From Escherichia coli (GTDB lineage Bacteria; Pseudomonadota; Gammaproteobacteria; Enterobacterales; Enterobacteriaceae): 64,000 bases of DNA. This document shows, piece after piece, positions 14,201 through 17,200 of the stretch (position 1 is its first letter; the number at the start of each line of letters is the position of its first letter). The stretch is from NCBI RefSeq assembly GCF_029227855.1, contig NZ_CP074357.1. One strand, given 5' to 3'. The position numbers were made by a program.

Positions 14201-17200
14201 CAAAAACAATCTAAGGAAGCGGGATGATTAAAGTTATCACACTTTTATTGTTTGCATTACTGACTGGTTGTCAGTCAGTAGAAAGTAAAATCGAAGAACT
14301 CCCGACAGTTGGTTTTGACCCTATTCTATACAATAAAAGTGAGGCCTTTACTGACGGAAAAGTTACTTTACGTGTCGAAAGTTCAGGAACTGATGTTTGG
14401 CTTGTCGCCAAGAATGGAACCAGAAGTTTTATTGAGCTTTCAGGCCTAACGCTAGGTGGTAGTCGTTGTGCTTACAATGCCCGTAGTAAGCAACTTTTGC
14501 CCCCAGGCAGCGTAAGCACATTCGTAGTTCCTACGGTTGGAATGCTTGGACTTTGCTTCAACAATGAAGATCAACTTATGTTTATTAACCGTGCTTTTAG
14601 CAGAATCTCTCCCAAAGCAAAAGGAAAAGATTCTCTTTCTCTTTTATTTTCTGTTAGTTACGATTTTCCCGGAAAAGCGGACCTAATTAATAACCACGAT
14701 TTTCAAGAGTTATATCTTTTATTTTTGAATGAGGATAATCTATGAAAAAAACATTAATTGTTATTTTATTATGTTTTTGTCACTCAGTTTTAGCATATCC
14801 ATACCGTATCTATACTGTCCCGGAAGGGGCATTAGTAAAAAACATACTAACTAATGAATATCTAGGAAAAACCCCTGTGGTTGTGGACGTGAGCAATACC
14901 GAAGCTGGTTCTACTTTTGGGATTTCTTTATTTAGACATGAAAATGTTGCTATAAAGATTTTTACAGTAATGCCTTCAGCAGAAAATAATTTTGCTGTTT
15001 CTGGACCTGACGTTGCAACTATGTCATTGCCGGGCAAAGCACCTTTAAACGTAGTAAATGATGGGAATGGCGCTTCTGTTCATATAGAACTAAGACCTTA
15101 TATGTCTGAACCTGCGCACACCCCATATTAATATAACAAGAAATTAAAAATATAAATCATATGAACTGCATCATAAAGATGCAGTTCAATATTTATTCTG
15201 ATACTTTTAATTTTTCTTTTATGAACTCCTCTAGCTCCTTAATAAAACCCGCACTTATCCTATTGAATTCAATGCGAATTTTTCTTCCAGTATTGTTTTT
15301 ACTGATTCTTGCATACTTATCTTTGTTATCAAAAGTAATAAGATCACTTGTTTCCCATTTTGTGGAATAAGATTTTTCACAAACACTTTCCACAGCTTGT
15401 GTGATTTTCTCCATTACAACTTTTTGGGCAACTTGGAGATCTCCAATGTCTAAATCTTTTGTTTCCTCTTTAACATTATCTATTACTTCATCTAAAGGAA
15501 ATAGATTTTTTTGCACATATTTCTGTAAACGAGACAAGCGACTATAATAGGAGTTCGGTATTCCTTCATAATCCGGGAATAAAGAGATCAATGTTTCGTC
15601 AATACGGGCCGCCTGGATTCTTTTGGCTACCGATACATGACTAATCCCAAGATATGCTGCGAGTTCTTCATTAGTAGAAAATCCCTTTTCTTCCATTTTC
15701 TTGATAAATTGAAACCCAACTTCTCTATATGAAAATTTTCGAGATGTTTGTGCTGCGGATATAATTGAATTTATATCATCTTCGGTTAGTTCATCCGGTA
15801 GTACCCACAGGGGGAGATCCTTTTCTGCCTTTATACAGCAGAAACGTCTGCGACTTCCTTCTATTAATAAATAAACCCCATCTCTTTTTACAGCGATCCC
15901 TTCGGTATCGACCCCTCTTTCTTCAATCTGCTTAAGAATATCTCTAACAGAATAATCTGTAAGGGCTTCTTGATTTCGTGGGTTTGCTGGATGGACTAAG
16001 GTCTCCTTCTCCACTCTCTGGGCTGGAACAATCACATGTTCCGCTTCAAGTCTTCGGCCCTTATGAAGAGTGAATAACTTTTTTATGCGAGGTGCTGTTT
16101 TCAAACCCGCAAGACCTGAACGGTGACCGACTTCTGTCCGCTTTGGTGCGTTTAAATATCGAGATTTATCATTCCCGATATGTTGCTCATCGCTCATGCG
16201 TTAACTCCTTGCTTAGCTGAAAAACTTTTTATTTCATTTATAAATTGTTGATATACCTGTAATACAGATTCTTCTGCGACATCAAGTTGCTTTGCGGAAC
16301 AAAGTTCCTCTGATTTTTTGATATCAAGCACTGTACGCCCTTTGGAAGCAGCTGCCTTAAATGCTTCAGAATTTTTTATGTTAGCGGACATCAAAAGGTC
16401 CTGAACAGTTCTGATTAATTTATCCAAAACTATTCTTTCATATGGACTTTTGTCATCAACATTGACAGCAAGAACTTTGAACCATTTTAAATTATCGCCC
16501 TTACTTGGTGATTGTTTAAACCTTTCACTTATTGTAAGCATGAAGTCTGTAGTAGAGGCGTAATCATATTCACGTGGTGACACTGCGACAAGAATCCCAT
16601 CGGCCGCTTCGTCAGCAGCCCAGATCAAAGGTGAATCTTCAGGTGGAGTGTCTATAATAATCAAATCATAGTTCTGCTTCAGTACCGGTAAGATAACTTC
16701 CTTGAAACGTAGTAACAAAGACGTTCGTTCTTCTCTAGAACATTGCCAGTATTTATCTTTAAAACGAGCATCTGTCGGAAATGCCGTTATCACGTCCAAG
16801 TTTGGCAGATGCGTTGAAAAAGGCATATTAGTGATGATTTCTTCTTCAGAGAATCCTGAATCTAAATATTTTTTATACTCAGAATTTTCTTCATAAATTC
16901 CAAGGATTGCATCAATTGCTGTAAGGAAGACATCATCTTCTGAGACACTTTGAATCATGCTGCTTCCAATCGAACCTTGTGGGTCCCATTCGATCATTAA
17001 TACACGTGCATTCAGTTGTAGATCTAAAGCAGCTGCTACTGCTAAAGCTACAGATGTAGTGCTTTTCCCTGTACCGCCTTTATGATTCTGAGTAACAATA
17101 GCTCTGCTAAAGTAATGATCGCGGTACTTGGGATAACCCAGGGCATCCATTATTTTTTGAACATCCCAGCGGGTGTAAAGATGATTTTTGTTTTGATAAA

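Follow-up and report, generated by a model that had tools for sequence, protein, structure and literature searches.

A perfect inverted repeat, able to fold into a hairpin, occupies the 61-bp gap in which parB and a four-gene operon converge. We conclude that this hairpin is probably an ordinary transcription terminator, shared by parAB and the opposing operon and aided by polymerase collision, and that it is very unlikely to be a centromere. The evidence is the structure and position of the hairpin, its covariation among related plasmids, its homology to a canonical terminator in one of their lineages, and the absence of ParB-type motifs. Coordinates in Table 1 refer to the window, that is, the whole stretch of 64,000 nucleotides that was analysed.

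Table 1. Features around the parAB operon and hairpins found after parB in related plasmids; coordinates are given for the window only.
Feature	Position	Strand	Sequence	Basis or remark
Four-gene operon convergent with parAB: metallophosphoesterase, two hypothetical proteins, 129-aa protein	12451..15131	+		sequence searches, annotation
A-rich left flank	15141..15153	.	AAATTAAAAATAT	92% complementary to 15201-15213; T-rich tail of the parB-sense transcript
Hairpin-forming inverted repeat, candidate shared (bidirectional) terminator of parAB and the convergent four-gene operon	15162..15188	.		fold, terminator scan, simulation, homologous hairpins of relatives
T-rich right flank	15189..15213	.	AATATTTATTCTGATACTTTTAATTT	tail of the + strand operon transcript
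parB, P1-type centromere-binding protein, 334 aa	15193..16197	-		Pfam PF08775 E 4.8e-11; RefSeq annotation
parA, long type Ia Walker ATPase, 417 aa	16194..17447	-		PDB matches, annotation
Palindrome-rich block upstream of parA (sequence in parA sense)	17482..17513	-	ACGCATTATGCGTAAAGTTTACATATATGCGT	conserved IncHI1 vs IncHI2
21-bp core, present once in each ~249-bp repeat unit (14 copies)	17921..21385	-	ATTTAACCCCCTTAATCGCCA	repeat analysis; core also in relatives
IncHI1 p3498/pMAK1 hairpin	after parB		ATCCGCATC-ATTA-GATGCGGAT	
pCF10-type hairpin	after parB		AATCCGCATC-GCAAG-GATGCGGATT	
C. werkmanii-type hairpin	after parB		AAACTGCACC-TCCT-GGTGCAGTTT, then nine T's	
Providencia hairpin	after parB		GCCACC..GGTGGC, then TTTTTCTTT	
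Klebsiella-type hairpins	after parB		GTCATGAT..ATCATGAC, then TTTCTCATTT	

The two arms of the repeat, 15162-15172 (TGAACTGCATC) and 15178-15188 (GATGCAGTTCA), are 100% complementary over 11 bp and enclose a 5-nt loop, ATAAA. An earlier note on this DNA had reported an inverted repeat with 10-bp arms within 15132-15192; the repeat and the interval stand, and the arms measure 11 bp rather than 10. The gap is bounded by the stop codon of the plus-strand ORF 14742-15131 (15129-15131) and the convergent parB stop codon on the minus strand (15193-15195), and the repeat lies 30 nt past the former and 4 nt past the latter. Five of the 11 pairs are G-C. The isolated hairpin has a free energy of -16 to -17 kcal/mol, and in a context of 76-84 nt the fold reached z-scores of -4.5 and -5.5 against shuffled sequences. 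Scanning positions 12000-19000 for terminators flagged the hairpin on both strands, as the sole flagged element with an 11-pair stem. A search of the whole window against Rfam at the gathering threshold returned no family match. Simulations counted perfect inverted repeats whose arms reached 11 bp or more and whose loops spanned 3-10 nt: a 64-kb sequence from a first-order Markov model of the window is expected to hold 0.17 of them, and a 61-nt stretch with the local composition 2.5e-4. The remaining long perfect inverted repeats of the window are RepHI2 iteron pairs.

The window belongs to an IncHI2 resistance plasmid of E. coli and corresponds to bases 1-64000 of NZ_MZ152088.1. On its minus strand, residues 150-330 of ParB align to the P1 ParB structures 1ZX4/2NTZ (E 4e-16). 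Among PDB structures, ParA matches 7NPD (deposited as ‘Walker A-type ATPase’, E 5e-37), which we take to be V. cholerae ParA2; ParA also matches the plasmid partition ParA entries 3EZ2/3EZ9 (398-403 aa), of P1 and P7. The long ParA with its N-terminal extension, together with a ParB that combines a P1-type HTH with a dimer/B-box domain, has the protein features of a type Ia ParABS system of the P1/P7 ParB subgroup. On the plus strand, Klebsiella homologues of the 129-aa protein are annotated as trhZ, and the four-gene operon corresponds to the ‘Z operon’ in transfer region Tra2 of R27, of which it is a homologue. The name and regulation of the R27 operon come from PMC7366339, where it is one of the thermoregulated tra genes, and where microarray expression levels show parA and parB of R27 to be highly expressed at both temperatures, independently of HtdA.

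Just past the parB stop codon, then, stands a stable, G+C-containing stem-loop, and this single hairpin in a convergent gap can be read from both strands, with A-rich sequence on its 5′ side and T-rich sequence on its 3′ side. In an extended fold, the left flank (15141-15153) pairs with the right flank, which overlaps the final parB codons. The tail that follows the stem is TATGATTTATATTTTT in the parB sense and ATATTTATTCT in the Z-operon sense; on either strand T makes up five of the eight nucleotides directly 3′ of the stem, which is enough for a simple terminator scan, and the T-scores of the IncHI2 tails are 2.0 and 1.65. A d’Aubenton-Carafa-type score fell below zero on either strand (-20.6 and -29.2). 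We therefore do not call the IncHI2 hairpin a canonical intrinsic terminator, and a role in stabilizing 3′ ends becomes the main rival explanation. As a further counterpoint, a ribosome terminating at the parB stop could hinder folding of the stem, because the stem starts only 4 nt beyond it.

Related plasmids provided the comparative evidence. Every relative examined has a hairpin 4-24 nt past the parB stop codon, and plasmids carrying the homologous hairpin at the same place share 72-74% ParB identity. When the hairpins of the IncHI2, C. werkmanii, and IncHI1 types were aligned, 92.7% of the cells were paired, compared with 33-42% in slid controls. Both sides of a pair had changed in five of the 11 pairs (four of ten by RNAalifold), in a sample of five distinct sequences. 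The C. werkmanii hairpin, whose downstream genes are co-directional, reaches the scores of a canonical intrinsic terminator (d = +20.9, T-score 4.2). Across the sampled IncHI2 variants, the hairpin is unchanged between variable flanks, with ISApl1 lying ~12 nt off in one of them; these variants therefore give no covariation information beyond this conservation.

The earlier note had offered a bidirectional terminator as one option, and this option is backed by the position of the hairpin, its covariation, the homologue with a T9 tract in a relative, and the symmetric A-rich and T-rich flanks. In the mechanism we propose, an RNA stem-loop would end transcription of two converging units, parAB on the minus strand and the Z operon on the plus strand, with either transcript able to fold into an identical 11-bp stem whose 3′ tail is moderately rich in U. 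These tails are imperfect, so termination is unlikely to be wholly intrinsic. We infer instead a pause and termination element like those between convergent E. coli genes, where bidirectional terminators are hairpins that act weakly alone in either direction (bioRxiv 10.1101/2022.10.23.513370). The stem-loop would position the two polymerases, head-on and trailing collisions would complete their release, and the 3′ stem left behind may protect both mRNAs. The predicted effect is that the constitutively expressed, housekeeping partition operon is insulated from the thermoregulated conjugation operon.

The main rival, which we consider unlikely, holds that the hairpin is chiefly a stabilizer of RNA 3′ ends. 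Rho or polymerase collision would stop transcription, the hairpin itself would release no polymerase, and 3′-5′ exonucleases would degrade the RNA as far as the stem, leaving the parAB and Z-operon mRNAs protected. A strong stem followed by weak U-tracts fits this explanation, as do the parB-sense tails of the IncHI1 hairpins, which are even poorer than that of IncHI2 (T-score 0.35 for p3498), while the covariation supports an RNA structure but is silent on what the structure does. Two observations nonetheless favor termination. Homologous hairpins are followed by a perfect T9 in the C. werkmanii lineage and by TTTTTCTTT in Providencia, which points to an ancestral terminator function; and a bidirectional terminator requires symmetric A-rich/T-rich flanks such as those of the IncHI2 hairpin, which a stabilizer could do without.

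It is improbable, in our assessment, that the hairpin is a programmed collision site that couples the two regulons, such that conjugation status tunes the level or the 3′ end of parB mRNA and hence partition. In this scenario, the Z operon is induced at low temperature and its polymerases could meet those of parAB at the stem-loop. A variant, in which ParB clamps that spread from the array, 2.7 kb away, also meet the duplex palindrome as a boundary or an accessory contact, is still less likely.

That array, upstream of parA, is probably the centromere at which the ParB of Par1 binds, judging from its sequence. Its 21-bp core joins a heptamer resembling the P1 A-box to an exact P1 B-box (ATTTAAC, 8 nt, TCGCCA), is non-palindromic, and includes the 20 nt of the repeat unit that are best conserved (98.9% vs ~73% overall). 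All 14 copies are confined to the array, and none lies downstream of parB. IncHI1 and pCF10 have exactly this core, and the C. werkmanii type departs from it at the first two bases alone; the repeat units of these relatives are 52-56 bp long and unrelated outside the core. In the IncHI2, IncHI1, pCF10-type, and C. werkmanii-type plasmids, Citrobacter relatives among them, the conserved ParB-type core is found upstream of parA only, and more distant relatives (the Klebsiella IncHI1B type and Providencia) have cores on both sides, including downstream of parB. A centromere downstream of parB, the usual arrangement according to the earlier note, is thus true of P1 and F but not of this clade. The earlier note had also reasoned that, if the centromere were at the hairpin, the 249-bp array would need another explanation; since the conserved core sits upstream of parA only, the array is itself the centromere candidate and none is needed. 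Lawley and Taylor, working on the R27 partition modules in 2003, reportedly assigned incompatibility to repeat regions adjoining the par genes. In the literature that was searched by text, no description of an IncHI centromere or of the hairpin was found.

Placing ParB at the inverted repeat, as the Par1 centromere or an accessory loading site in the manner of P1 parS or F sopC, is very unlikely against this background. The idea has a basis in the P1-type ParB and in P1 parS, which comprises A-boxes ATTTCAC/ATTTCAA, the B-box TCGCCA, and an IHF site, and begins 5 nt past the parB stop. It could also draw on the ParB-type cores downstream of parB in the Klebsiella IncHI1B type and Providencia, and on a lone TCGCCATT located 4 nt past the parB stop in the C. 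werkmanii type. Yet neither strand of 15129-15195 contains TCGCCA, ATTTAAC, ATTTCAC, or ATTTCAA, and the best match of the 61-bp gap to the 21-bp core has 10 mismatches in 21 positions, which is also the commonest value among random 131-nt tiles drawn from the window. The hairpin is single-copy, and it has changed at four to five stem positions, about one third of the stem, and in the loop where the lineages kept the core identical or nearly so. In relatives with cores downstream of parB, the hairpin is separate and precedes the cores, and one IncHI2 record has no hairpin at all. The hairpin therefore has neither the ParB recognition motifs of a parS nor sequence conservation alongside its cognate ParB, and the suggestion in the earlier note that it might be a ParB site or centromere is not borne out.

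We think it similarly doubtful, to the point of being highly improbable, that the palindrome is an operator bound on duplex DNA by another dimeric protein, e.g., a transfer regulator or ParA. Its dyad symmetry is perfect, and a palindromic protein site would also keep the compensatory symmetry described above. Moreover, IncHI2 shares its inner five pairs, GCATC/GATGC, with both IncHI1 types, and of these pairs only one, with its change compensated, is different in the C. werkmanii type. Against such a site, the half-site spacing shifts between lineages, with loops of 4 and 5 nt that also vary in sequence, and stem bases are swapped with pairing kept. The arm has no other copy in the whole window at 0 mismatches and three scattered matches at 1 mismatch, a number within chance, and no second site in any relative checked; thus, no further copy lies near a promoter in the window or the relatives. 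The position, at the 3′ ends of both operons, leaves nothing there to regulate. The palindrome is also unrelated to the conserved block at 17482-17513, which is the likely parA promoter/operator. A link between the two was considered and rejected: the conserved block upstream of parA (ACGCATTATGCGT...) shares the GCAT tetramer only, and its spacing differs. Finally, a functionless chance palindrome is conceivable in AT-rich intergenic DNA (about 36% GC), but this origin is rejected by the simulation and effectively refuted by compensatory changes across lineages that share 72-74% ParB identity and by the invariance of the hairpin in the sampled IncHI2 plasmids.

As what is probably a routine transcript boundary, the hairpin matters little on its own account, and annotations of the IncHI2 centromere should not be placed on it. 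The comparison gives, in its place, a concrete and testable putative ParB site, ATTTAACCCCCTTAATCGCCA, with its P1-like A-box and exact P1 B-box, in 14 copies upstream of parA. IncHI2 plasmids, major carriers of mcr and carbapenemase genes, have Par1 as their main partition system. In this plasmid an IS has destroyed the second partition system, parMR, so that Par1 with its array probably provides the sole active partition function, and the plasmid is well suited to incompatibility or curing experiments.

Among known systems, the bidirectional terminators of E. coli, with ynaJ-uspE as the model (Ju et al. 2019, as presented in bioRxiv 10.1101/2022.10.23.513370), resemble the IncHI2 hairpin in several respects. 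They, too, consist of a single stem-loop acting on both strands in a short convergent gap, and their weak or asymmetric U-tracts would give poor one-way intrinsic termination. At the IncHI2 locus, collision would require both operons to be active together, and the Z operon is thermoregulated in R27. The canonical Rho-independent terminator of the C. werkmanii/Klebsiella sp. plasmids (NZ_CP019987.1, NZ_AP022021.1) has a stem, AAACTGCACC/GGTGCAGTTT, homologous to TGAACTGCATC/GATGCAGTTCA of IncHI2, and agrees with it in position after parB and roughly in free energy. It is followed by nine T’s and co-directional genes, whereas in IncHI2 the T-tract is interrupted and the operon 61 bp away is convergent. 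P1 parS is similar only in its location relative to parB and in having a P1-like cognate ParB: the hairpin is devoid of box motifs, and the box-like motifs of IncHI2 sit in the array upstream of parA. F sopC shares with the hairpin an inverted repeat downstream of a type Ia B gene; SopB binds the 16-bp inverted repeat found in every one of the 12 x 43-bp repeats that make up sopC (PMC2910045, PMC3177203). In contrast to this multi-copy array of inverted repeats, the IncHI2 inverted repeat is single-copy, and the multi-copy array lies on the opposite side of the operon, built on a core that is non-palindromic.

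The gap between the convergent ends of parB and the homologue of the R27 Z operon holds an inverted repeat that is real, although the earlier note gave its arms as 10 bp: the perfect arms are 11 bp long and enclose the loop ATAAA. The hairpin stands mid-way in the 61-bp gap, 30 nt past the plus-strand operon stop and 4 nt past that of parB. Simulation predicts 0.17 perfect inverted repeats of its size per 64-kb window and 2.5e-4 per 61-nt stretch of local composition. The stem by itself reaches -16 to -17 kcal/mol, and with its flanks the fold beats shuffled sequences by 4.5-5.5 SD. 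Neither the rest of the window nor the locus of any relative has a further copy of its arms, and Rfam gave no match at the hairpin. Many IncHI2 plasmids are 100% identical over 6.5 kb around it; in NZ_MZ152088.1 (E. coli, 267 kb, IncHI2A) this stretch has the same coordinates, so that the window equals bases 1-64000 of this accession.

Features of the window discussed in the text
Feature	Position	Strand	Remarks
IS5-like ISKpn26	~10235-11428
Metallophosphoesterase gene, first of four convergent genes	12451-13398	plus	annotation
Two hypothetical-protein genes within the four-gene unit		plus	annotation
129-aa protein gene, last of the four	14742-15131	plus	Klebsiella homologues annotated trhZ
Hairpin arm TGAACTGCATC	15162-15172
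Hairpin arm GATGCAGTTCA	15178-15188
parB	15193-16197	minus	annotation
parA	16194-17447	minus	annotation
Palindrome-rich block just upstream of parA	17482-17513		parA-sense ACGCATTATGCGTAAAGTTTACATATATGCGT
Array upstream of parA	17827-21325		period 249, 14 copies, ~73% matches
Cores	17921-21385	minus
TCACTACCRTTGTC copies	50931-56320
repHI2	51934-53022

We compared the parAB loci of plasmids with increasingly distant ParB, and a hairpin was located 4-24 nt from the parB stop in every lineage compared. It was invariant among the IncHI2 variants sampled, and the hairpins of IncHI2, the C. werkmanii type and the IncHI1 types aligned column for column (alignment A2), with 92.7% of cells paired versus 33-42% when the partner was slid. 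Both sides had changed in five of 11 pairs (four of 10 by RNAalifold), and the loops varied in sequence and length. What has been selected, at the parB 3' end, is therefore the pairing, as in a terminator or 3' stem-loop and unlike a protein recognition sequence.

Hairpins and cores at parAB loci of the plasmid lineages compared
Lineage	ParB identity to IncHI2	After parB stop	Cores	Spacing	Core sequence
IncHI2 (window)			14 by pattern scan (12 with stricter scan)	~249 bp	ATTTAACCCCCTTAATCGCCA
IncHI1 R27-like p3498 and pMAK1	72%	ATCCGCATC-ATTA-GATGCGGAT	23 (p3498)	mostly 52-54 bp	identical to IncHI2
pCF10 / p60214CZ / pLEC type	74%	AATCCGCATC-GCAAG-GATGCGGATT	7 (pCF10 type)	~54 bp	identical to IncHI2
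C. werkmanii / Klebsiella sp. MOBH lineage	72%	AAACTGCACC-TCCT-GGTGCAGTTT, then T x9	6 (C. werkmanii type)	56 bp	identical bar first two bases (CTTAAC...)
Providencia	55%	GCCACC-TACCCC-GGTGGC, then TTTTTCTTT	one copy each side of parAB		CCCCCTTGTTCGCCAA
Klebsiella IncHI1B-type	48-49%	GTCATGAT..ATCATGAC, then TTTCTCATTT	long arrays both sides of parAB (locus L005, 1869-3771 and 7201-7345; locus L006, 1519-4339 and 7077-8027)	~66-67 bp	variant, AACCCC(C/G)TTGTTCGCAG

The hairpin is probably a shared bidirectional terminator of parAB and the Z-operon homologue. A consensus terminator scan found it terminator-like on both strands and the sole long-stem candidate in 12-19 kb; its left flank is A-rich and its right flank T-rich, 15141-15153 being 92% complementary to 15201-15213. 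The C. werkmanii-type counterpart (T-score 4.2, d = +20.9), which has co-directional genes downstream, is by its sequence a textbook intrinsic terminator. The T-tract after the stem is interrupted in IncHI2 and still more strongly in IncHI1, and a d'Aubenton-Carafa-type score was negative in both directions for the IncHI2 hairpin. The main rival, which we consider rather unlikely, is that the stem stabilises 3' ends without itself causing polymerase release.

Variation was also seen around the hairpin. In pD36-1 (locus L018, NZ_MF083142.1, ~300-315; window ~15147), ISApl1 lies ~12 nt from it on the Z-operon side, with hairpin and parB intact. One IncHI2 record, NZ_OQ215737.1 (locus L015), carries a 402-bp deletion at 6606/6607, equivalent to window 14826-15227, which takes away the hairpin together with the final 35 nt of parB and most of the 129-aa gene and fuses parB to a new C-terminus; this may reflect true variation or faulty assembly. 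The IncHI1-type parB-Z gap measures 183-185 bp, versus 61 bp with a single hairpin in IncHI2, and includes a second G+C-rich hairpin adjoining the Z-operon stop (AGGCCCC..GGGGCCT and CAGGTCCC..GGGACCTG; 7155-7185 in L002 and 7160-7185 in L003, two IncHI1-type loci). This second hairpin is absent from IncHI2, whether by loss or from the start, which leaves IncHI2 dependent on a single one.

It is unlikely that the palindrome serves as operator for some other regulator: it is a single-copy element at the 3' ends of two operons, its half-site spacing differs between lineages, and it has no relation to the conserved operator-like block preceding parA. That block, unlike its surroundings, is near-invariant between IncHI2 and two IncHI1 types and probably serves as promoter/operator in parA autoregulation.

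The four-gene unit has its counterpart in R27, the IncHI1 prototype, as the 'Z operon' of transfer region Tra2; there, expression of the partition operon is high at both temperatures and independent of HtdA, and the transfer operon is thermoregulated (PMC7366339). The hairpin would form a boundary between the partition operon and a transfer operon under thermoregulation. We think it very improbable that it is a programmed site of collision by which conjugation status would be coupled to expression of the partition genes.

The earlier note had held that, were the centromere at the hairpin, the array upstream of parA would need another explanation; that need does not arise, the array being the better candidate. 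IncHI2 ParB matches Pfam PF08775, its residues 150-330 align to the P1 ParB-parS crystal structures 1ZX4/2NTZ, and these matches mark it as P1-like. In P1 ParB the HTH domain recognises A-boxes and the dimer domain recognises the B-box (PMC2910045); in the annotated P1 parS, A is ATTTCAC/ATTTCAA and B is TCGCCA. The array unit contains one sharply conserved segment, GGCGATTAAGGGGGTTAAAT (98.9% column identity), which in the parAB sense gives the 21-bp core ATTTAACCCCCTTAATCGCCA, made up of an A-box-like heptamer, 8 nt and an exact P1 B-box. All 14 copies are on the parAB strand and inside the array, versus zero expected. The cores of the IncHI1, pCF10 and C. werkmanii types likewise all precede parA, oriented as in IncHI2, in repeat units otherwise unrelated; where ParB is only 48-55% identical (Klebsiella types, Providencia), the core motif differs too. 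This joint shift of core and ParB is the signature of a cognate site-protein pair, and the array with its cores is likely the Par1 centromere. The placement of such arrays relative to parAB varies among lineages of this ParB clade.

On both strands of the 61-bp gap we found no A-box and no B-box, the best core match has 10 of 21 positions mismatched, which is the modal background value, and in relatives with downstream cores the hairpin is distinct from them, lying between these and the parB stop; this speaks against the hairpin as centromere. That one IncHI2 record lacks it is, as a single record, weak evidence. Of the readings first proposed, terminator, ParB site or both, that of a terminator is favoured by conserved pairing and position, and that of a ParB site or centromere is not upheld. 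In the C. werkmanii / Klebsiella sp. plasmids (loci L013/L014, 6645-6652), TCGCCATT occurs 4 nt past the parB stop, ahead of the canonical terminator, placed exactly as box B1 of P1 parS (TAAACTTTCGCCATT); this is a possible relic or accessory ParB site, and IncHI2 has no equivalent after the parB stop.

Elsewhere in the window, the second partition system (region 10235-12087) is broken: relative to another IncHI2 record, ISKpn26 has taken the place of 1224 bp, namely one third of parM, at its 3' end, and the entire parR-like gene, and the parM ORF is 234 aa long versus 345 aa elsewhere. This probably leaves Par1 as the sole functional partition system of this plasmid. Around repHI2, 47 copies (at most 2 mismatches) of TCACTACCRTTGTC were counted, versus 0.8 expected by chance; a run of inverted pairs with ~81-bp period at 53568-54575 accounts for the window's other long perfect inverted repeats, and the copies look like RepHI2 iterons.

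No published account of the hairpin turned up in a literature search that did not extend to the main study of R27 partition. Bidirectional terminators between convergent E. coli genes are weak alone; they pause both polymerases, and head-on and trailing collisions finish termination (bioRxiv 10.1101/2022.10.23.513370). We chose the shared bidirectional terminator because the IncHI2 hairpin is like these in its convergent genes, one strong stem and poor U-tracts, which would make it an ordinary example of a familiar class, the terminator hairpin between convergent operons.
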